A DNA stretch of 64,000 bases from an uncultured Acidobacteriota bacterium. GTDB taxonomy: Bacteria; Acidobacteriota; Vicinamibacteria; Vicinamibacterales; 2-12-FULL-66-21. Of this stretch, positions 2,413 through 57,243 are shown one piece after another. Where the stretch lies: positions 95,993-159,992 of the forward strand of contig CAVRYF010000006.1 of assembly GCA_963725325.1 (NCBI GenBank), given 5' to 3'. The stretch's first letter is position 1. Each line of letters starts with the position of its first letter. The position numbers and the translations under genes are program-made. The notes beneath the pieces were generated by a model that was given only the letters and a program-made list of their open reading frames with translations, had not been told where the DNA came from and ran no database searches.

Positions 2413-2604
2413 GTCAGTCGTCAGTCTTCAGTCGGCGGTCGTCAGGCTCAGTCCTCAGTCCGAGTCGCTAGTCCCAATCGTCAGTCGGAGTCTTCAGTCG
2501 GAGTCTTCAGTCGGTGATGGCAATCCCGTCGCGACTGCCGACTGGAACAGACGACTCGGACTGACGACTGTGACTGGCGACCGTCGACTCACGACTGTCG
2601 ACTG
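2413..2604. repeat. 192-nt word-repeat hairpin filling the whole spacer between the two tRNA-Arg genes
   Basis: The left half is built of CAGTC-type heptamers (gtcagtc gtcagtc ttcagtc ...). The right half is built of the complementary GACTG words (gactgacgactgtgactgg...). For example, cagtccgagtcg occurs in the left arm and in the reverse complement of the right arm. Confidence 0.8.
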
Positions 2605-3163: not shown

Positions 3164-3240
3164 GCGAACGGCGAACGCCGAACGCCGAACTCCGAACGCC
3201 CAACGCCGAACGCCGAATCGCGAGTCGCGAGCAGCGAGCC
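3164..3240. repeat. tandem heptamer array (CGAACGC-like, about 10-11 units)
   Basis: cgaacgg cgaacgc cgaacgc cgaactc cgaacgc ccaacgc cgaacgc cgaatcg cgagtcg cgagcag. It lies between the ligD stop and the ferredoxin start. Confidence 0.85.
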
Positions 3241-9885: not shown

Positions 9886-10500
9886 ATGAACGGCGAAGGG
9901 ACTGGAGATCGCGCCGGCCTGAGCGACGAGGTAACTTCGACGTCGCTGGCTCTACTCGCTCGCGCCCAGGCGGGCGACGTGCAAGCGCTCGAAGATCTTC
10001 TCGGCCGGTTGCTGCCGCGCCTGAGAACCTGGATCAGCGGCAGGTTGCCAGGCCGCTATCGTGACCTGTGCGACACAGAAGACCTCGTGCAGGACACGGT
10101 CGTTCGAACCCTGCGGATCCTTCCAGCATTCGAAATCCGACACGACGCTGGCCTTCAGGCGTACCTGCGCCAGGCGCTGTGGAACCGGCTGCGGGAAGAG
10201 ATCAGGCGCTCGGGCCGTCGCGGGCCCTCCGAATCACTCGATGAATCGCTCGCAGCAACGGATTCCTCCCCGCTGGAGCGGGCGATAGGCCTCCAGGCGA
10301 TCGAGCGATACGAAGCGGCGCTGCAGAAGCTGGAGGACGACGAGCGCAGCGCGGTCATCGGTCGCCTCGAGCTCGGCTACTCGTATCCGGAACTGGCGCT
10401 GCTACTTGGCAGGAATACGCCTGATGCGGCGCGCAAGCTCGTCGAGCGTGCCATCCCGAGGATCGTCACCTGGATGCGAGATGACGCACCGGCCGCCTGA
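9886..10500 (+). CDS. ECF-type RNA polymerase sigma-70 family factor
   Basis: ORF 9649..10500 trimmed to the ATG at 9886. It has region 2 (DTEDLVQDTVVRTL) and a region 4 HTH (GYSYPELALLLGRNTPDAARKLVERA). Its stop overlaps the downstream kinase start. Confidence 0.85.
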   Translation: MNGEGTGDRAGLSDEVTSTSLALLARAQAGDVQALEDLLGRLLPRLRTWISGRLPGRYRDLCDTEDLVQDTVVRTLRILPAFEIRHDAGLQAYLRQALWNRLREEIRRSGRRGPSESLDESLAATDSSPLERAIGLQAIERYEAALQKLEDDERSAVIGRLELGYSYPELALLLGRNTPDAARKLVERAIPRIVTWMRDDAPAA

Positions 10501-12895
10501 GTACGCCCACCTCGTCGAGGCGATTGTTGATGGGCGATCGATCGACGTCGTCCCGTCGCTTGACGATGATCGGACGCTCTCTCAGCTACGGGTGCTGCTC
10601 GAGATTGCCCGCGTCCACCGCGAGGCTTTGACCGTCGACGGCGTTGCGGGAGCATCGGTCGGCGCTGCACCGCCGGTGTCACTCGGTCACTCCACGTCGC
10701 GTTGGGCACACCTGCACCTGCTCGAGTCAATCGGACACGGTTCATCCGGCATGGTCTATCGGGCGTGGGACAGCCGGCTCGCAAGGGAGGTGGCGCTCAA
10801 GCTGATGCCGGCGGGAGGGACGTCGACCTCGTCCACGCTCGTCGAAGCCAGACGCCTGGCTCGCATACATCACCCGCACGTGGTCTCGGTGTACGGCGCC
10901 GATCAGATCGACGGCCGGGTCGGCGTCTGGATGGAACTGCTGAGGGGCCGTACGCTGCACGACGTGGTTCGGGCACAAGGGCCGCTGAGCGCGCGAGAGG
11001 CGGCGCTCCTCGGTGCCGACGTGTGCTCCGCGCTCGCCGCGGTGCACGGCGCGGGATTACTCCACCGCGACATCAAAGCCCAGAACGTCGTCCGCGAGCA
11101 CGGGGGCCGCATCGTCCTGATGGACCTCGGTGCAGGCCGTGAGATGGCCGACGATCCCTCGCTCGACCTGGCGGGGACGCCACTCTACATGGCGCCGGAG
11201 CTGTTTGTCGGAGGGCCCGCGACCGTCAGGAGTGACATCTACAGCCTGGGCGTGCTGCTTTTCTTTCTGACGACCGGATCCGTGCCGGTGGTTGCTTCCA
11301 CCTTGACCGAGATCCGCCGCGCGCACGAGCAGGGCCCTCGGAAGTCGTTGCGGGACCTGCGGCCAGACCTTTCGCGTGCGTTTGTCGAGACGGTCGATCG
11401 GGCGATCGGACCTGATCCAGCAGACCGGTTTGCGAGCGCGGGCGAGATGGAGCGAGCACTGTCAGCCAGCATGGGGGCTCGCCCCGTCGTCGTTCCCGCC
11501 TCGCCCAACAGGTCCCCGCTCGGTCGCGTTCTTGGCAGGAGCATTCCTGCATGGGCGGCGATTGCGCTGGCGCTGCTGGGGGGCTTGCTGGTTCTGGTTG
11601 CCGAGAACGTCAATCCGTTCTCTCGACGTGTGTCACCCGGTGTGGCGGTACCTGCGGGCGGCGGGACAGACGCGGGCGTCCGTCCCCTCAGTGCCGACCA
11701 GGCAAAGATTGCCCGCGGCTTCGAGGAACTCGGCTCGACGCTCGCGAGTCGCGGCGAGTGGGACCAATCGGTGCCGCAGTATGCCGAGGCTGAGCGGATC
11801 TACCGCCTCAACACCAACCCGGACGCTCCGCTGGTTGGCACCGCGCTGGCCAGGCTCGGGTGGGCGCAGCAGCACGCGGGGCAGCTCGAGGCGGCGCGTG
11901 GCAACTACGAGCTCGCGCTCGCCAAGTTCGAGAACTTCGACGTCGCCGCATGGACCGAGACGACCCTGGTTGCTCTCGCATCGCTCCACCAGCGCGCCGG
12001 TCGTCAACAGGACGCCGCGGAGGCCCTCGGTCGCGCGCTGCGAGTTCGAGCGCGGGTCCTGCTGGGATCGCACGATGATGTTGGCGGCCTCGCCCGAGTT
12101 GGCGTGGCCGTCGATCGACTGGAGAGCTCGCTGGCGTCAGTGCCGCTCGATCAAGACGGCGACGGCGACTGGCTGCCGGATGCGCTCGAGGTTGCCCTGG
12201 GCTTGAATCCACGATCGTCCGATGGGGACGGAGATGGCGTACCCGATGGGGACGAGGACGTGGACGGCGACGGTGTGTCGAACTGGCTCGAGTTCGGGGT
12301 GACCGTCGATCCGACGAAGATGATTGCGCACTTCGGCGGAGTCGATCCCGAATGGCTCGGGTTTCAGCAACCGGACAACCGGCGGTTCGTCGGGCGTTCC
12401 CTGACGTCGGCAGCGGCTCCAGCCTGGAAGATACCGAGCACCGGGCAAAGCATCTACTTCCATCCCCTCACTGGCGCCCAGCGCGCGGCGGCCATGACCC
12501 GTGGATGGCGATTCGTGACGCGAGGAGAACTGCACGAGGGCGTCGGACGGGTTGCGCTCGATTTGAGTCCTGATGGACCGCTCTTCGACCTGGGTTTCTA
12601 TCAGGAGGGGGCGACCGGCACCGACGTCCGCGTGATTACGAGCGTCGTGCCGTTGACGGGTCCGCTCGAATCCGCGTCTCGCGTTGGTCCGTGGCCACTG
12701 CTGGGCCTCGACTACGAGCCGTCGACGAAAGGCGCGGCGCTCGTGGTGAATGGTGCACGGCGGCCCATCGAGCCCTACGCTGGCCACAATCAGTTTCAAG
12801 ACGACATGGGGTTCTTCTTTGCTGCGAGCATCGGGCCGGGCAAGTCGGCGCGAAGTGATGTGGATTTCAACATCGTCAGGCTCGTGATTCGGTGA
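10481..12895 (+). CDS. membrane Ser/Thr protein kinase with TPR-like, TSP3-like Asp-rich repeats and a C-terminal beta-rich ectodomain
   Basis: Kinase motifs are GHGSSGMVYRA, VALKLM, HRDIKAQN, DLGAG and YMAPE, followed by one TM segment (WAAIALALLGGLLVLV) and DQDGDGDWLPD...DGDGDGVPDGDEDVDGDGVSNWLE. The ATG at 10481 overlaps the sigma gene by 20 nt. Confidence 0.85.
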   Translation: MTHRPPEYAHLVEAIVDGRSIDVVPSLDDDRTLSQLRVLLEIARVHREALTVDGVAGASVGAAPPVSLGHSTSRWAHLHLLESIGHGSSGMVYRAWDSRLAREVALKLMPAGGTSTSSTLVEARRLARIHHPHVVSVYGADQIDGRVGVWMELLRGRTLHDVVRAQGPLSAREAALLGADVCSALAAVHGAGLLHRDIKAQNVVREHGGRIVLMDLGAGREMADDPSLDLAGTPLYMAPELFVGGPATVRSDIYSLGVLLFFLTTGSVPVVASTLTEIRRAHEQGPRKSLRDLRPDLSRAFVETVDRAIGPDPADRFASAGEMERALSASMGARPVVVPASPNRSPLGRVLGRSIPAWAAIALALLGGLLVLVAENVNPFSRRVSPGVAVPAGGGTDAGVRPLSADQAKIARGFEELGSTLASRGEWDQSVPQYAEAERIYRLNTNPDAPLVGTALARLGWAQQHAGQLEAARGNYELALAKFENFDVAAWTETTLVALASLHQRAGRQQDAAEALGRALRVRARVLLGSHDDVGGLARVGVAVDRLESSLASVPLDQDGDGDWLPDALEVALGLNPRSSDGDGDGVPDGDEDVDGDGVSNWLEFGVTVDPTKMIAHFGGVDPEWLGFQQPDNRRFVGRSLTSAAAPAWKIPSTGQSIYFHPLTGAQRAAAMTRGWRFVTRGELHEGVGRVALDLSPDGPLFDLGFYQEGATGTDVRVITSVVPLTGPLESASRVGPWPLLGLDYEPSTKGAALVVNGARRPIEPYAGHNQFQDDMGFFFAASIGPGKSARSDVDFNIVRLVIR

Positions 12896-12914: not shown

Positions 12915-14855
12915 GTGACGAACGTGCTCGACGGGCAGACACTCCAGCGCCTCGTGCAGGTGACCGGGCCGCTCAGTGCGCGCGAGGCGGCCCTCATCGG
13001 GGTGGATGTGTGCACCGCACTGAGTGCCTTGCATCGGGTGGGTTTGGCTCACGGGGGCGTCACGGCAGACACGGTACTCCGGCAGCACGGCGGGCGGATC
13101 GTTCTCGGAGGTGTTGACGGCCGGGGTGAGAACGCGGGTCCGGCGTCGCCCTACACGGCACCGGAAGTGATCGCTGGGAAAACGGCCACGACTTCGAGCG
13201 ACATCTACAGCCTTGGTGTTCTACTCCTGTTTCTCTCGACCGGATCAGTCGCCTTGGCTTCGGTGAAGTTGAACGAGACACATACCACGGACCGAACTGG
13301 CGCGACGAGATTCCTGCGCGATGTGCGGCCCGACCTGCCGCGGGCGTTCGTGGAGATCGTCGACCGCGCGCTTGCGCACGCCCCCGGCGATCGGTTCGCG
13401 AGCGCCGAGGAGATGAGACGTGCGCTGGCCACCGTGATCTCACGCGCCTCGGATCGCCAGGAGGGCGACGCCAAGAGCCCTGCCGGCCTGCTGGCCTGGA
13501 CGCACCCCGCCAGGGTCGTCGCCGCCGTCGTGATTTCCGTACTCGCGATGATGGTCGCCGTCACGGTCGCGCCCCTCTCGTGGAGAGGCTTCTTGACGCG
13601 CACGGCGCCGGCTGCCGATCGCGGGATCGCTGGCGCCGTCCGTGGCCTGACCGCCGATCAGGCGAAGATTGCCTTCGGCTTCGAGGAACTCGCGTCCTCG
13701 TTGGCTGGTCGCGGCCAGTGGGAGCAGTCAGCAGCACAGTACGGGGAAGCCGAGCGTATCTATCGACTGAATATGGGCCCGGACGCGCCGCTCGTGGCCG
13801 CGGCGCTCACCAGGGTTGCCTGGGCGCACCAGCACGCGGGGCAGTTCGATCTGGCGCGCCGCGACTACGAGCTCGCGATCGCCACATTCGAGGATGCCGC
13901 CCCTGGCCCGCTTCTGGAAGTCGCACTTGGGGCTCTGGCCTCGCTCCAGCAACGTGATGGCCGCTTCGCCGATGCCGTCGCCTCGATCGATCGTGCGCTC
14001 ACGTTGCGCGCTCAGATCCTTCAGCAATCCGCCGATCCGACCCGAGGCCTGTCGCGTATCGGCATCGACTCTTCGGTGTTGGCCGCGCTGATGTCCTCAC
14101 ATTCCCTCGCAGACGACGAGGACGGCGACTGGCTGCCTGATTTGCTTGAAGTTGCCGTCGGATTGCGCCCGGATTCGAGCGATACCGACAGAGACGGGGT
14201 TCCGGACGCCGAAGAAGACCACGACCTCGACCGAATTTCGAACGTCGTCGAGTTCGGGTTGACCGCGGATCCCACGAAGATTGTTGCTCACTATGGCGCG
14301 GTGGACCCCGAATGGTCAGGGTTTCAGCAGCCCGCGAACCGGCGATTTTCGGGCCGTGCGGCGGGCGTGCCGTCCGTCGCAGCGTCGTGGAACGTTTCAG
14401 GCCCAGGTCAGCTGATGTACTACCAGCCTCTCACGAGTACCCAGAAGGCAACCGCACTCCGTCGCGGCTGGCGCCTGATGGCTCGAGGCTCGCTGCATCG
14501 TGGCGGCGCGTTCGCGAATGTAGACTTCGAACCTGGCGGTCCGCGTTTCGACTTGGAGTTCCTCCGCAATGCCGCTGACGGCGTCGACGTTCAGCTGAAT
14601 ACCAGCGTGGTGCCGTTCGAGGGACCCATCGAGCACGTGTCGGGAGGCGATCGCTGGGCGCTCACCGAGCTCTTGTACGATCCCACCCTCGGGCGCGCGA
14701 CGATTCTCATCGACGGGGTTCGACGGTCTCCCCAATACGCCGGCCACAAGCAGTTCCAGGAGGGTCTCGGGCTGTTCTTTGGCACTTGGGACGTCTTCGG
14801 TAAGGCCACATCGGGTGACGCCGATCTCGGCCTCGTGGTGTTCGTCATCCGCTGA
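12915..14855 (+). CDS. N-lobe-less pseudokinase paralogue of the upstream kinase (C-lobe remnant + TM + TPR-like + TSP3-like + C-terminal domain)
   Basis: It aligns to the upstream kinase from the alpha-D region onward (GPLSAREAAL, SDIYSLGVLL, DRFASA.EM.RAL). HRDIKAQN is replaced by AHGGVTADT, and DLG and the whole Gly-loop/Lys N-lobe are absent. The start is GTG. Confidence 0.7.
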   Translation: MTNVLDGQTLQRLVQVTGPLSAREAALIGVDVCTALSALHRVGLAHGGVTADTVLRQHGGRIVLGGVDGRGENAGPASPYTAPEVIAGKTATTSSDIYSLGVLLLFLSTGSVALASVKLNETHTTDRTGATRFLRDVRPDLPRAFVEIVDRALAHAPGDRFASAEEMRRALATVISRASDRQEGDAKSPAGLLAWTHPARVVAAVVISVLAMMVAVTVAPLSWRGFLTRTAPAADRGIAGAVRGLTADQAKIAFGFEELASSLAGRGQWEQSAAQYGEAERIYRLNMGPDAPLVAAALTRVAWAHQHAGQFDLARRDYELAIATFEDAAPGPLLEVALGALASLQQRDGRFADAVASIDRALTLRAQILQQSADPTRGLSRIGIDSSVLAALMSSHSLADDEDGDWLPDLLEVAVGLRPDSSDTDRDGVPDAEEDHDLDRISNVVEFGLTADPTKIVAHYGAVDPEWSGFQQPANRRFSGRAAGVPSVAASWNVSGPGQLMYYQPLTSTQKATALRRGWRLMARGSLHRGGAFANVDFEPGGPRFDLEFLRNAADGVDVQLNTSVVPFEGPIEHVSGGDRWALTELLYDPTLGRATILIDGVRRSPQYAGHKQFQEGLGLFFGTWDVFGKATSGDADLGLVVFVIR

Positions 14856-26967: not shown

Positions 26968-27078
26968 GGTGTCAGGCAGTGAATCGTGAATCCCGCTGCG
27001 TTCAGACATTTCTACGGCTGGATTCACGATTCACTGCCTGACACCGGCGGCTGGATTCACGATTCACTGCCTGACACC
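26968..27078. repeat. three-arm inverted/direct repeat (one left arm, two identical right arms)
   Basis: ggtgtcaggcagtgaatcgtgaatcc (26968-26993) is complementary to ggattcacgattcactgcctgacacc. That sequence occurs within two identical 30-mers at 27016-27045 and 27049-27078. Each arm contains GTGAATC twice. Confidence 0.9.
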
Positions 27079-27181
27079 GATGAACTGGCCCGATAGGGCG
27101 GGCACGGGAGGAGCGGGTCAGGGGACAGATATGATAGGCAGGCCGTGCAGAGCCCGGTACACACCGGGCTGGAAGGGCGTA

Positions 27182-27922
27182 ATGGAACCGGGTGACGTGC
27201 GCTTCAACGGTGGTTTTCCCGCGACCCGCCATTCGGCGATTGAGCGGATTCGTGACGCCGACCCCGAGACCCGGCGCGAGGCGTTCGGCGACCTGGTCGA
27301 CGGCTACTGGCGGCCCGTCTACAAGCACCTCCGTCTCACGTGGCACCTCGACGCCGAGGACGCGCGCGATCTCACGCAGGGCTTCTTCGCCGACGCGTTT
27401 CAGAAGGCCTGGCTCGAGCGCTACGAGCCGGGCAAGGCCAGGTTCCGCACGTTCGTTCGTGTCTGCGCCGACCGGTTCGTCATGAACATGCGACAGTCGT
27501 CTTCCCGGCTGAAGCGCGGCGGCGGCGTCCAGACGCTGCCGCTCGATTTCGAAGGCGCCGAGCGCGAGGTCGCCTCGCGCGGGCTCGTCGCGATTCCCGA
27601 TCCAGACGAGCTCTTTCATCAGGAGTTCGTGCGCGCGCTCTTCGACAAGACGGTGCAGGACCTGCGGGCGGAGTACGAAGAGCGAGGGCGCCCGATCCCC
27701 TTCGCCCTCTTCGAGCGCTACGATCTCACACCGGCCGAGGGCGTGAGCTACGCGCAGCTTGCCGCCGAGTTCAGCCTGACGCCAGCCCAGGTGACGAACA
27801 GCCTCGCGCAGGTCCGCCGCCGCTTCCGCGAGCGCGCGCTCGACGCGTTGCGCGGGCTGTGCGGCAGCGACCAGGAGTTTCGACGCGAGGCGCGCGATCT
27901 CTTTGGACTGGACGTCGAGTGA
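27182..27922 (+). CDS. ECF-like sigma-70 family factor (kinase-associated type)
   Basis: Trimmed to the ATG at 27182. It has a region 2-like segment (AEDARDLTQGFFADAF) and a region 4 HTH (VSYAQLAAEFSLTPAQVTNSLAQVRRRFRE). Its TGA overlaps the kinase GTG as GTGA. Confidence 0.72.
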   Translation: MEPGDVRFNGGFPATRHSAIERIRDADPETRREAFGDLVDGYWRPVYKHLRLTWHLDAEDARDLTQGFFADAFQKAWLERYEPGKARFRTFVRVCADRFVMNMRQSSSRLKRGGGVQTLPLDFEGAEREVASRGLVAIPDPDELFHQEFVRALFDKTVQDLRAEYEERGRPIPFALFERYDLTPAEGVSYAQLAAEFSLTPAQVTNSLAQVRRRFRERALDALRGLCGSDQEFRREARDLFGLDVE

Positions 27923-28980
27923 GCACGAGGGCGAGCGGGCTGTCGGACGCGGCGGTGAGTCGCCTCCGGGCGCTGGGCCGATGGCCGGAGTTCGAGTCCG
28001 GCCGCTACTCGGTCACGGAAGAAATCGGCCGCGGCGGCATGGGCACCGTCTTCCTCGCCGTCGACGAGGAGCTCGGCCGAGAAGTCGCGATCAAGATTCC
28101 CAACGCGCTCGCCAGCTCGGACCTCGAACGCCGGCTGCGAAGCGAAGCCCGCATCCTCGCCAGGCTCGAACACCCCGGCATCGTCCCGATTCACGACGCC
28201 GGCCGGCTCGCCGATGGCCGCCTCTTCTACGTCATGAAGCGGGTCAGGGGCCGGACGTTGAACGAGTGCCTCCAGGAGGTTCGCGATCGGACCGAGCGGC
28301 TGCGGATCTTCGAACGCATCTGTGAACCGGTCGCCTTCGCACACGCGCAGGGCTTCATCCATCGGGACCTCAAGCCGGAGAACGTCATGGTGGGGGCCTT
28401 TGGCGAGGTGATGGTGATGGATTGGGGGATAGCTAAGGCAGTCGGCAGTCTTCAGTCTTCGGTCGGCAGTCACAGTCTTCAGTCTCAGTCGACAGTTCCC
28501 GTCGACAGTTCCAGTCGACAGTCCGAGTCCGCAGTCCCAGTCCCCGGTCCGACCGAAACCGGCGACGGGACGGTCGTCGGAACCGTGGGCTTCATGGCGC
28601 CGGAGCAGGCGCGGGGAGCTGTCGCGGATGTCGACGAGCGGGCGGACGTGTATGGGCTGGGGGCGATTCTGTTTCTGTTGCTGACGGATCGCCTTCCTGA
28701 TGCGAATCCGTCGGAGAGTCTACGGGTGATGAATGTTCCGCGGCCGCTCGCGGCCATCTGCGCCAGGGCGCTGGCGGTCGAGCCCTCCGCGCGGTATCAG
28801 CGTGTGACGGCGCTCGAGGAAGACGTGGTGCGTTACCGGGACAACCGGAAGGTGGATGCGTATCGGGAAACCGTGGTCGAACGGGCGCTCAGGTTCGGAC
28901 GCACGTATCGAACGGCTATCCTGCTCGTGCTGGCTTACATCGTCATGCGGGCCGCGGTGGCGTTTTTTGCACGCTGGTAA
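27919..28980 (+). CDS. Ser/Thr protein kinase with C-terminal TM anchor and ~40-aa Ser-rich activation-loop insertion
   Basis: Kinase motifs GRGGMGTVFLA, VAIKIP, HRDLKPEN, DWGIAK and GFMAPE, with a C-terminal TM segment AILLVLAYIVMRAAVAFFA. The GTG start at 27919 overlaps the sigma stop. Confidence 0.85.
   Translation: MSTRASGLSDAAVSRLRALGRWPEFESGRYSVTEEIGRGGMGTVFLAVDEELGREVAIKIPNALASSDLERRLRSEARILARLEHPGIVPIHDAGRLADGRLFYVMKRVRGRTLNECLQEVRDRTERLRIFERICEPVAFAHAQGFIHRDLKPENVMVGAFGEVMVMDWGIAKAVGSLQSSVGSHSLQSQSTVPVDSSSRQSESAVPVPGPTETGDGTVVGTVGFMAPEQARGAVADVDERADVYGLGAILFLLLTDRLPDANPSESLRVMNVPRPLAAICARALAVEPSARYQRVTALEEDVVRYRDNRKVDAYRETVVERALRFGRTYRTAILLVLAYIVMRAAVAFFARW
28436..28550. repeat. CAGTC-word array inside the kinase CDS
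   Basis: ggcagtc ggcagtc ttcagtc ttcggtc ggcagtc acagtc ttcagtc tcagtc gacagttcccgtc gacagttccagtc gacagtccgagtcc gcagtcc cagtcc. It encodes SLQSSVGSHSLQSQSTVPVDSSSRQSESAVPVPG. Confidence 0.85.
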
Positions 28981-28998: not shown

Positions 28999-29215
28999 AC
29001 AACGGGACGCGGATTACGCGCATCACTACGGGACGCGGATTACGCGGATCGCCAAGGGACGGGGATTGCGCGGATTCAACACTGGACGCCGAGTGCGAGG
29101 ATCAGTTGGGTCTTCTGAGAACGGAGAGCGTTCTTGGTCAAACTTGAAGATGCGCGCGATCCGCGTAATCCGCGTCCCGTTGAATTGAGTGATCCGCGTT
29201 CCCGCTGATCGGGCC
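28999..29215. repeat. ~215-nt word-repeat hairpin (GGACGCGGATTACGCG-type words)
   Basis: The left arm is three degenerate copies of gggacgcggattacgcg (29003-29080). The right arm is cgcgcgatccgcgtaatccgcgtccc...gatccgcgttccc (29152-29212). The apex holds an inner hairpin, agaacg-gagag-cgttct. Confidence 0.85.
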
Positions 29216-32480: not shown

Positions 32481-33249
32481 GTGCGCCGCGGTCCTATTCT
32501 CCTGCTCATCCTCGCCTGCGCTCTTGCAGCCTGGGCCCTCTACTCATACTGGACATCCGGATTCGTGTATGTCCTCGCGAGCGGCACGCCGGGTCAGGGG
32601 GCTTGGCTCGAGCGCGTGCGAGAGACCGTTGCCGGCTGGGGGCGGCTCGCGCCTCTTGTCTACACGTTGGCCGTCGTCGTCGAGGTCATCGTCGCGCCGA
32701 TTCCGGGCACGCTGCTCTACGCGCCCGCGGGCGCGATTTTCGGCGGGTTTATCGGCGGGTCGCTGTCGCTCGTCGGCAACGTCATCGGCGCGGCGATCTG
32801 CTGCGTGATCGGCCAGATGATCGGCGGGCGGGTGCTGGCCGAGCGCCTCGACGGCTCGCAGCTCGACCGATACCGCACGCGCCTCGAAAAGCGCGGGATG
32901 TGGCTGGTCCTGCTCCTTCGACTCAATCCGCTGACGACATCAGATCTCGGTGTCGTACGCCGCCGGTGTGGCGAGCGTGCCTGCGTGGAGAGTCGCCGTC
33001 GGCACCCTGTTCGGCCTGGCCCCCTGGTGCTACCTGCAGGCCTACTTCGCGGAACAAGTGTTCGAGTTCGTGCCCGGTCCCTACCTCATCGCCGGCGGTA
33101 TCGCCCTAATCATCATCGCCGTCGGCGTGGTTGCCGTCGGCAGCCGCCGGTCCGGGGACACTCAACCGGGACAGTCCCCAGGGACACTCAAAGGTGAGTG
33201 TCCCCAGGGACACCCAAGAGTGCCTGTCCCCGGGGACACCCAACAGTGA
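32481..33249 (+). pseudogene. TVP38/TMEM64 (DedA-related, VTT domain) membrane protein with a +1 frameshift near 32944-32950
   Basis: Frame 1 reads ...LLLRLNPLTTSDL and then turns Arg-rich. Frame 2 (ORF 32950..33249) continues the family sequence VSYAAGVASVPAWRVAVGTLFGLAPWCYLQAYFAEQ. One extra base lies in gatctcGgtgtcg. Confidence 0.65.
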
Positions 33250-33260
33250 TTGTCCGCGGC
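33152..33260. repeat. GGGGACAC-word hairpin cluster overlapping the 3' end of the TVP38-like gene
   Basis: Repeated ggggacac/gtgtcccc words. There is a perfect 10-bp stem, gggacactca-aagg-tgagtgtccc, at 33181-33204. Confidence 0.8.
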
Positions 33261-44680: not shown

Positions 44681-44743
44681 CACCTCAGCGTCCCTCAAGC
44701 TCGGGTCGAATGTCAACATGAGCGTATCAGACACGATTCTTGG

Positions 44744-44824
44744 CACGATGACCACGATGGTACGATGACCACGATGGATTTTCTTTGTTGACATCGTGGT
44801 CATCGTCTCATCGTGTCCATCGTG
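44744..44824. repeat. ACGATG-word hairpin upstream of padR / mfs (divergent region)
   Basis: cacgatgac cacgatggt acgatgac cacgatgg - attttctttgttga - catcgtggtcatcgt ctcatcgt gtccatcgtg. The palindrome cgtgatcacg follows it. Confidence 0.85.
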
Positions 44825-49334: not shown

Positions 49335-50477
49335 TCAGCGCCGCCGGCCGATGCCGAATTGATCGCCCGTGGCCGTGAGCTTGCCGTTCGAGAAGACGAC
49401 TTCGACCATCTTTTCGCTCTGCACGGGCTTGCCCGCCTCGTCCGAGAGCGTCGCGACGACCTTCTTCGTCGCCGTGTCGATGATCTCACCGGTGGAGGGG
49501 TAGCCGTAGCGTCCGTCCAGGCTGAAGGTGATCCAACCTGGCTGATCGCGGACGTCGATCGTGGCGATCTGCTTCGGCGGCATCACGGTCGCGTCAAAGA
49601 TGTGCACCTTGCTGTTGGCGCCGTCGGCGAGCCAGATCTCCTTCTCGTCAGGCGTCAGCGCGATGCCGTGGCTGGGACAGCCGTGCCGCTTCACCGGGCC
49701 CTTCTCATAGCCCGTGACCTTCACCTGGTGCAGGACCTTCCCCGTCTTGATATCGCCGATTTCGAAGCCGAGCAGGTCGTTGACATTGACGAAGCACAGT
49801 GTCTGCTTCGCGTTGATCGTGAACGGGCGCACCGGAGCGCTGAAAGGCCCGACGCCGCCGACGACGGTATGGGTGCGCGGGTCGGCAATGGAGAGCGTTG
49901 GCGATCGCAGCCCCGCGAGGTATACGTGCTGACCGTCGGGTCCGTAGATCGTGTTGTGCGCGCCGGAGTCGGTCACGACCTTCTTCAGCACGTCGCCGCT
50001 CATCGCGTCGAGCGCGTGCCAATGAGGGCCTTCGAGAGACGGCAGGTAGAGGATCTTCCCGTCCGGTGAGAGCGCCATGCGATCGGCGCCGCCCTCGTAC
50101 TCGCGCACCCAGACCCGCTTGCCGGTTGCCAGATCGAACGCGCCGAGCCGCTTGATCGTCGAGACGTAGAGTCGTCCCGTCCTTGCGCTCGCGGCGATGC
50201 CCTTGACGTTCTCGGGCGGCTCTCCGGCCACGACGTCGAACGTCGGTATCCGTTTCACGAATCGGTGGCCGTTGTCCATGTCGTACACGACAAGACCGAT
50301 CCCGCCGTACTCGACGTAGTTTCGGATGCCCGGCGTGGCGACATAGAGAAGATGCTGGGTGCTTCTGGCGGCCGCATGCGGCTCACCCAGGAAGGCGAGC
50401 GTCACGAGGCACAGGCCCAGCTTCAGACTTCCCAGCTTCAGACTTCTAAACTTCAGACTTCGCACGTCAGACCTCAA
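49335..50477 (-). CDS. YncE/YVTN-like beta-propeller protein, exported
   Basis: Seven-blade-like repeats (LYV.., ..SPDGK.LY). The N-terminus is encoded by 15-bp tandem repeats. The start is either TTG at 50477 or GTG at 50465. Confidence 0.78.
   Translation of the reverse strand: MRSDVRSLKFRSLKLGSLKLGLCLVTLAFLGEPHAAARSTQHLLYVATPGIRNYVEYGGIGLVVYDMDNGHRFVKRIPTFDVVAGEPPENVKGIAASARTGRLYVSTIKRLGAFDLATGKRVWVREYEGGADRMALSPDGKILYLPSLEGPHWHALDAMSGDVLKKVVTDSGAHNTIYGPDGQHVYLAGLRSPTLSIADPRTHTVVGGVGPFSAPVRPFTINAKQTLCFVNVNDLLGFEIGDIKTGKVLHQVKVTGYEKGPVKRHGCPSHGIALTPDEKEIWLADGANSKVHIFDATVMPPKQIATIDVRDQPGWITFSLDGRYGYPSTGEIIDTATKKVVATLSDEAGKPVQSEKMVEVVFSNGKLTATGDQFGIGRRR
50416..50475. repeat. 15-bp tandem repeat x4 (two perfect) inside the N-terminal coding region
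   Basis: cccagcttcagactt occurs twice, followed by ctaaacttcagactt and cgcacgtcagacctc. It encodes SLKFR/SLKLG/SLKLG. Confidence 0.85.
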
Positions 50478-53829: not shown

Positions 53830-53971
53830 GCACTGCCTCCGCCGCGGACGATAACGAATTCTCACGCGGATCACAATAGGACGATCCCGTGCCGCCCACA
53901 CCGCGATCCGGTGGCATAATCCTCCAGTCCGTCCCCGGGGGTTGGTCAGAACCAGCTTGGAGTCACAAACC

Positions 53972-56104
<2,133 letters not shown>

Positions 56105-56131
<27 letters not shown>

Positions 56132-56176
56132 TCGCAGTCGTCAGTCGCAGTCGTCGGTCGCAGTCGACAGTCAGTG
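56105..56176. repeat. CAGTCGT/CAGTCG word array (13-nt period) spanning the peptidase stop
   Basis: cagtcgggagtcat cagtcgt tagtcg cagtcgt cagtcg cagtcgt cggtcg cagtcga cagtcag. It uses the same word family as 2413-2604 and 28436-28550. Confidence 0.85.
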
Positions 56177-57136: not shown

Positions 57137-57243
57137 GTTCAGGGTTCAAGGTTCAAGGTTCAGGGTTCAAGGTTCAAGACCTTCGAGTGTGTACTTGAAG
57201 CTCTTGCTTGAACCCTGAACCCTGAACCCTGAACCTTGAACCC
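57137..57243. repeat. ~107-nt heptamer-word hairpin between convergent genes (possible bidirectional terminator)
   Basis: gttcagg gttcaag gttcaag gttcagg gttcaag gttcaag - apex hairpin cttcgagt-gtgt-acttgaag - cttgaac cctgaac cctgaac cctgaac cttgaac. No U-tract is present. Confidence 0.85.

Follow-up and report, generated by a model that had tools for sequence, protein, structure and literature searches.

A CAGTC-core word array read in frame within the activation loop of a Vicinamibacterales Ser/Thr kinase: probable tolerance of a dispersed repeat family at a permissive site

When a dispersed nucleotide repeat lies in frame within the regulatory loop of a signalling enzyme, has the encoded peptide been recruited for regulation, or is it simply borne by its host protein? 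This question is raised by a stretch of 64,000 nt (hereafter, the window) from an uncultured soil bacterium of the phylum Acidobacteriota, order Vicinamibacterales (contig CAVRYF010000006.1 of assembly GCA_963725325.1, positions 95,993–159,992), which encodes a Hanks-type Ser/Thr kinase of 353 aa (27919..28980, plus strand, GTG start). The activation segment of this kinase carries an in-frame array of CAGTC-core words of 6 or 7 nt (28437..28551, plus strand). A first-pass annotation, made from the sequence alone, considered the array to be exapted, or at least tolerated, at the main regulatory site of the kinase, where it would add about 17 potential phospho-acceptors. Below we argue that ‘tolerated’ is the better-supported of the two words.

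Within 28439–28542 there are 11 CAGTC words, where ~0.1 would be expected by base composition, and Tandem Repeats Finder recovers periods of 7, 13, 20 and 27 nt from words that are imperfect (67%–85% matches), the higher-order periods being 13 and 39 nt. DWGIAK and GTVGFMAPE are 47 residues apart, which agrees with the original description of an unusually long loop. In a HMMER alignment to PknB of Mycobacterium tuberculosis, the best solved relative (3e-35), kinase residues 183–212 remain unaligned, amounting to an insertion of 30 aa directly N-terminal of the residues aligned with the ‘VTQT’ segment of PknB, which we take to be the site of the activation-loop threonines T171 and T173. The figure of about 17 acceptors holds for the entire 47-aa stretch (17 Ser/Thr) but not for the 40-aa insert to which the first-pass annotation had attached it (12 Ser and 3 Thr). 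The remark that the array has a single arm and leaves the frame open stands: there is no complementary arm nearby in the window, and the one-armed array lacks the inverted repeat of palindromic elements akin to Rickettsia palindromic elements, repetitive extragenic palindromes or miniature inverted-repeat transposable elements. When the 38-aa insert peptide was searched against 1.84 billion representative proteins, a search of low sensitivity for such a low-complexity query, only two kinase fragments were retrieved, so that nothing points to translation of the array in proteins of other families. An assembly artefact can be ruled out, because the array recurs across many independent assemblies of differing sources. 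The array RNA on its own folds weakly (z = -1.84) and was, for that reason, dropped as a candidate structured element; an Rfam scan of the window returned four tRNAs only and no family matching the array.

The words are shared with other sites in the window. All 12 matches to CAGTCNNCAGTC fall into four arms, at 2415–2460 (plus), 2533–2604 (minus), 28439–28523 (plus) and 56135–56172 (plus), versus 0.18 matches expected, and a count of 12 was reached in none of 100 shuffles; one word thus occurs in tandem at unlinked loci far above chance, as in a dispersed heptamer simple sequence repeat (SSR). The spacing of the AGTC cores is 6 or 7 nt in coding and non-coding arrays alike, and the three non-coding arms align without gaps to kinase arrays over ~75 nt, in the same order of spacings (7,7,7,7,6,7,6,7,6), with core identity of 84%–95% and spacer identity of ~47%. 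This bears out the proposal that the kinase insert, the tRNA-spacer arrays and the post-peptidase array belong to one repeat family. Only 17 positions underlie the comparison of spacers (identity of 0.47 vs. 0.33 expected), so that the direction of derivation between the copies is not established by it.

Two of the non-coding arms, one at 2413..2514 (plus strand), abutting tRNA-Arg(CCG), and the other in inverse orientation at 2530..2604 (minus strand), abutting tRNA-Arg(TCG), occupy the entire gap between the minus-strand tRNA-Arg(CCG) and tRNA-Arg(TCG) genes. Together, they form a long RNA hairpin (-110.8 kcal/mol, z = -9.0), which might serve for processing or termination within the tRNA precursor. 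The third array (56101..56176, plus strand) covers the final ~9 codons, together with the stop codon, of a prolyl-oligopeptidase gene (53942–56131): the open reading frame (ORF) enters the array by ~27 nt (56105–56131), and the tail of the protein, ...DHGRQSGVISR*, is array-encoded. Array-like tails are also found in the peptidase orthologues P0123, P0124 and, possibly, P0150, most others ending in ...GITPARAGTQ, and the orthologous peptidase loci L163 and L164 have word arrays at the same position. In L164 (2690–2850, 3′ of an orthologue with 82% identity), the CAGTC words are succeeded by (TCAGTTA)n and then by an inverted ACTGAAA arm. CAGTC arrays also lie directly 3′ of an esterase stop codon in L163 and directly 3′ of the kinase stop codon in L084, in which the kinase loop itself is without words.

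The copy within the kinase is hypervariable. Across a main set of 120 orthologous kinases with 64%–87% identity, loop length spans 13–127 aa (10–72 aa in more distant relatives), and among kinases that are 98%–99.6% identical across 280 flanking residues, the loop measures 39, 49, 52, 69, 77 or 127 aa. In L161 and L162, the long loops are composed of 7–8 near-identical tandem units of 39 nt (13 aa, six words); the unit sequences are unlike between the two loci, which points to independent recent expansions. The arrays of other lineages display periodicities of 21 nt (SRQSSVD) and 6 nt (SE). The locus, therefore, combines head-to-tail units with copy-number polymorphism among near-identical alleles, the two marks of a coding variable number tandem repeat (VNTR), and the alignment of orthologues that the first-pass annotation had recommended reveals an insert that is both strain-specific and length-variable. 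Orthologues with at most 63% identity mostly have short loops devoid of words. Two kinase alleles (L014, 10512–10640, and L168, encoding P0104, 6524–6640) contain a frameshift inside the array; both are from ‘contig_N’ assemblies, presumably long-read ones, and L014 bears a further insertion of 1 nt at ~10800, beyond the array. These alleles might represent errors, pseudogenes or phase variants. Every other array-bearing allele inspected at the DNA level is in frame.

What is conserved in the arrays is the word rather than the codon. Over the first 60 nt of nine orthologous arrays, column entropy is 0.22 in the cores and 0.87 in the spacers, and 0.39/0.33/0.41 at the three codon positions. Pairwise differences by codon position amount to 0.16/0.14/0.18 in the array and 0.065/0.060/0.30 in the flanks. 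Codon usage departs from that of the other genes in the window: AGT accounts for 68 of 177 Ser codons in the arrays (38%) versus 4 of 124 elsewhere (3%), and GTC for 80 of 88 Val codons versus 99 of 200. Array conservation follows word phase rather than codon phase, with no codon-level constraint on the protein, whereas the flanks, as their substitution pattern shows, are under ordinary purifying selection on the protein, from which the array is exempt.

The same loop accommodates other occupants as well. In two syntenic lineages (L166; L167 with P0109), the loop is filled with words in reverse complement (xCGA[C/T]TG heptamers), which encode peptides of the ADCGLPIGN and DCRL types, rich in Asp, Cys and Leu and with few Ser; in a neighbour-joining tree of the flanks, onto which the array state was assigned by reading the loop sequences, L166 and L167 are nested among lineages with forward arrays. 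Several alleles (among them those of L032 and L082) contain an additional in-frame palindrome of 45 nt, SPFDEAQGDPEPVEG, capable of forming a hairpin of -38.8 kcal/mol, the presence of which differs between kinases that are 98% identical. No copies of SPFDEAQGDPEPVEG were found outside kinase loops in the window and 2.0 Mb of retrieved DNA, and, being confined to these loops, it is not demonstrable as a dispersed element. At the same site, distant orthologues have GC-rich hairpins (CTGGGGGGCGCGCCGCTAGCGCCCCCCAG, encoding GGLGGAPLAPPS; L114, 6183–6356; L116, 10499–10669; L132, 7315–7437), and L024 has an array of CAACC words with a period of 12 nt (10496–10573). The loop is a general landing site for repeats.

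Column identity falls to 0.10–0.35, with gaps, in the hypervariable part of the activation segment (K173–V220; 28435..28578, plus strand), and in an AlphaFold2 model of the kinase built with 55 orthologues (predicted template modelling score of 0.70), the predicted local distance difference test score is 27–40 at residues 174–220 and mostly >70 outside the loop and the N-terminus. The structure prediction that the first-pass annotation had called for, thus, yields an insert that is predicted to be disordered. Directly after the array, the consensus T-x-x-G-T-V-[VI]-G-T resumes (T214-x-x-G-T218-V-V-G-T222-x; 28558..28587, plus strand), which is likely the canonical phospho-acceptor region, the insert being located between DWG-x-AK and this motif. 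Among 119 orthologues, the Thr at -7 is present in 110 (Asp in six), the Gly at -4 in 118 and the Thr at -3 in 103. T214 is aligned opposite the first Thr of the PknB ‘VTQT’ segment, presumably T171 in PknB numbering. Conservation of the motif 3′ of the array indicates that the usual acceptor region is intact and stands apart from the array.

The remainder of the kinase is well preserved. It matches Pfam Pkinase PF00069 with an E-value of 1.3e-34 and 120.3 bits (curated cut-off 31.7) and retains all catalytic motifs, namely, IGRGGMGTV (GxGxxG), VAIK, HRDLKPEN, DWG (a variant of DFG) and APE; K59, D150, N155, D168 and G170 are invariant among the 55 orthologues, and nucleotide differences between orthologues favour third codon positions by 5:1. 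The two outcomes that the first-pass annotation had named as fatal to its proposal, a loop segment shared across the phylum but not encoded by words and a decayed gene, find no counterpart here, given that distant orthologues are without words and that the gene is intact and, outside the insert, under purifying selection. In a subclade of 39 of the 120 orthologues (P0017, P0043 and others; L001, L003, L162), HRDLTPxN, mostly HRDLTPGN, replaces HRDLKPEN; this subclade is without the catalytic-loop Lys typical of Ser/Thr kinases and includes many long loops, among them a 127-aa allele.

We consider it probable, if well short of certain, that a permissive, disordered loop has been colonised by a lineage-wide, heptamer-type SSR family and that the array is tolerated rather than designed as a phosphorylation module. 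The disordered stretch between DWG-x-AK and T-x-x-G-T-V-V-G-T would be structurally permissive, and in one Vicinamibacterales clade, a copy of the CAGTC-core family, otherwise located after stop codons and in the tRNA spacer, would have come to occupy it. The array would behave as a DNA-level entity, with the cores being renewed or retained whatever the reading frame; it would gain and lose in-frame blocks (39, 21 or 6 nt), with replication slippage or unequal recombination as the presumed cause, and be open to inversion, replacement and further palindromic insertions. Selection would purge only out-of-frame or stop-bearing versions and any resulting peptide would be tolerated, making the Ser/Gln/Val-rich sequence a by-product. 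Several observations pull in the opposite direction. Nearly all lineages with at least ~64% identity still have the array or some remnant of it, and the shortest loop among close orthologues (>~70% identity) is 28 aa, so that a long flexible loop, or the DNA words themselves, might confer a benefit. Furthermore, core conservation among orthologous arrays (89%–98%) exceeds what pure neutrality allows, which calls either for homogenisation at a high rate or for the words themselves to have a function.

How, then, does tolerance compare with adaptive use of the encoded peptide? Under exaptation, the Ser-rich insert would serve as a multi-site autophosphorylation rheostat or a docking platform, with its length being a selected tuning knob. 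Forward arrays are indeed ~30% Ser and lie directly upstream of the conserved acceptor threonines, the insert is kept across a large clade, and the checked forward-array alleles from JGI, NCBI or metagenome-collection loci are all in frame. Yet reverse-orientation alleles yield the Ser-poor ADCGLPIGN- and DCRL-type peptides, other lineages have unrelated inserts or none, codon-level purifying selection is absent and rare AGT codons are retained, near-identical kinases differ threefold in loop length, and the canonical acceptor motif is conserved separately, 3′ of the array. With the array free of codon-phase constraint, the exapted phospho-acceptor module suggested in the first-pass annotation appears unlikely.

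The persistence of the words could, alternatively, reflect a role at the nucleic-acid level, with CAGTC words being bound by a protein or by an RNA complementary to them (such as GACUG arms transcribed from another locus) and the peptide being incidental. In line with such a role, the cores are conserved in all three frames, the same words lie on the coding strand at gene 3′ ends, and the tRNA spacer contains a complementary arm, the two spacer arms pairing strongly. However, the kinase was found to have no partner arm close by, either in the window or in four of the orthologous loci scanned for GACTG clusters, the weak fold of the array RNA and the lack of an Rfam match noted above speak against the idea, the reversed orientation in some lineages counts against a strand-specific RNA role, and core conservation would also follow from frequent homogenisation; we regard this scenario as quite improbable. 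Very unlikely, in our estimate, is a contingency locus, in which word slippage would frameshift the kinase, and hence also the sigma factor encoded next to it, off and on (phase variation). Because neither 7 nor 13 nt is divisible by three, slippage by a single word would shift the frame; units of 6, 7 and 13 nt dominate, and the alleles in L014 and L168 (P0104) are frameshifted inside the array. Both alleles, however, are from the presumed long-read assemblies and L014 has the separate 1-nt insertion, which makes sequencing error the simpler reading; moreover, the imperfection of the words disfavours single-unit slippage, and the recent changes that were observed are in-frame blocks of 39, 21 or 6 nt. 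Finally, arrays might be kept by a dedicated mechanism, such as a word-binding protein or RNA, or templated or conversion-based renewal, acting on the arrays in the kinase gene, the tRNA spacer and the 3′ ends of genes alike, in which case the loop would be an evolvability module. We consider this doubtful; if true, loop length, orientation and frame would change fast, retuning or switching sigma signalling between strains.

Tolerance of a repeat within a gene can be set against several known systems. Among long SSRs, those with heptamer units form the most frequent class in many bacteria, according to the summary of Mrazek (2007) in PMC4679880. Repeats of the TAACTGA type are present in Beggiatoaceae, Cyanobacteria and Bacteroidetes (PMC4679880), and GGGNATC and GGGGA(C/T)T (= AGTCCCC) repeats in Xanthomonas and Nostoc, with the GGGNATC type reported to form G-quadruplexes (PMC4692102). 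The window words, consisting of CAGTC followed by one or two variable bases, with few AGTCCC, are not identical to the published TAACTGA, GGGNATC and AGTCCCC heptamers, but the arrays share with published heptamer SSRs a unit of ~7 nt, a core of the AGTC/CAGT type, variable copy number and occasional overlap of ORF ends, and (TCAGTTA)n of L164 is the reverse complement of TAACTGA. By contrast, the window words are degenerate beyond the 5-nt core and alternate between 7 and 6 nt, giving rise to 13- and 39-nt units, and one copy of the family lies in frame midway through a catalytic domain, whereas the published heptamer families are depleted within ORFs or restricted to their ends. Rickettsia palindromic elements, reportedly described by Ogata et al. 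in 2000 as in-frame selfish repeats within coding genes, resemble the kinase array in that a nucleotide repeat is in frame at a surface-exposed, permissive site and function is apparently kept. Their closest parallel here is the 45-nt SPFDEAQGDPEPVEG block of some alleles; unlike these elements, the main kinase insert consists of one-armed tandem words, and neither target duplication nor identical dispersed copies have been demonstrated for it.

Coding VNTRs and contingency loci, in which SSRs drive phase or antigenic variation (Lin and Kussell 2012, as cited in PMC4692102), also have tandem repeats within an ORF with strain-level copy-number polymorphism. However, the kinase is a cytoplasmic signalling enzyme rather than a surface antigen, its repeat is mid-gene rather than N-terminal, and, in contrast to contingency loci, the repeats are imperfect and the securely observed variation is in-frame only. 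A large insertion into the activation segment is likewise tolerated in the ActPs2 pseudokinase family, where it reaches ~200 residues (bioRxiv 10.1101/2025.01.12.632604), but the window kinase retains all catalytic motifs and its insert is hypervariable between strains and traceable to a DNA repeat family. We did not find the combination of heptamer SSRs, coding VNTR, in-frame repeat, activation-loop insertion and sigma/kinase pair described in the literature; what is new is a non-triplet word array that is read in frame within a catalytic domain, is hypervariable at the strain level and is present in both orientations.

The kinase is the second gene of a sigma/kinase pair, its start codon overlapping the stop codon of an extracytoplasmic function (ECF)-like sigma factor gene (GTGA; 27182..27922, plus strand), and the two genes are predicted to be co-transcribed. 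The sigma ORF is open from 27080, with the likely start being M35 at 27182, which yields a protein of 246 aa; a gene of the same length is called at the equivalent position in the syntenic loci L161 and L162. The match to TIGR02937 (sigma70-ECF) spans profile positions 1–164 of 165 at 4.2e-6, under the curated cut-off. Gene order is kept in orthologous contigs (GGDEF protein, ~300-aa protein, sigma, kinase, small ORF, AsmA and/or glyoxalase), and the nearest genomes are metagenome-assembled genomes (MAGs) of Acidobacteriota/Vicinamibacterales. An ECF sigma gene adjoining a Hanks kinase gene is the arrangement of the ECF43 sigma–Ser/Thr kinase module, exemplified by EcfP–PknT and EcfK–PknS, in which the sigma-2.2 region has a group-specific motif with a phospho-acceptor Thr in place of the acidic DxxD (PMC13147305). 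As in these pairs, the ECF-like sigma gene is immediately upstream of, and overlaps, a gene for a membrane-anchored Hanks kinase. The differences are that the window kinase has only a C-terminal transmembrane tail, with no extracytoplasmic or sensor domain, the hydrophobic tail being modelled as a helix by AlphaFold2, and that the sigma factor falls below the ECF model cut-off. Its sigma-2.2 region, delineated by eye as DAEDARDLTQGFF, retains acidic residues (DAEDARDLTQ). A perfect tandem duplication of 33 nt in two copies, CGGCTGGATTCACGATTCACTGCCTGACACCGG, which could be a duplicated promoter or operator, precedes the probable sigma start by ~100 nt (27015–27079).

Immediately 3′ of the kinase stop codon lies a tandem array with a 26-nt unit, GGGACGCGGATTACGCG... 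(29000–29182), followed 103–133 nt downstream by an inverted copy, with 25-nt arms that are 96%–100% complementary; here, a separate word family displays the same tandem-plus-inverted architecture. After a gene end in the window, there are GTTCA[AG]G heptamer arrays accompanied by TGAACC[CT] arms in inverse orientation (57137–57178 and 57209–57243), and the same words recur in a related MAG (L014, 9204–9251 and 19192–19244), so that several heptamer word families are common to these genomes. Arrays of GGGGATC/AGGGATC, or the complementary GGATCCC, which belong to the GGGNATC type mentioned above, are located after gene ends in L007 (~10985–11015), L081 (~14685–14715) and L123 (~800–835). Additional arrays in the window include CGAACGC ×7.6 (3165–3217), a 26-nt unit ×3.9 (33155–33255), CACGATGAC with an inverted CATCGTG arm (44733–44824) and CTTCAGA ×7.7 (50416–50476).

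Many bacteria abound in heptamer repeat families, which have no explained function or origin and are normally kept out of gene interiors. The hundreds of natural alleles in the regulatory loop of a conserved enzyme described here constitute a natural experiment that separates constraint at the level of DNA from that at the level of protein: the core words persist in three reading frames and both orientations, and the encoded peptide is free to change. The activation segment of a bacterial kinase can take up from 30 to >100 arbitrary residues with the catalytic motifs kept, and the sigma/kinase pair offers a tractable system for asking whether the length of this loop tunes signalling.

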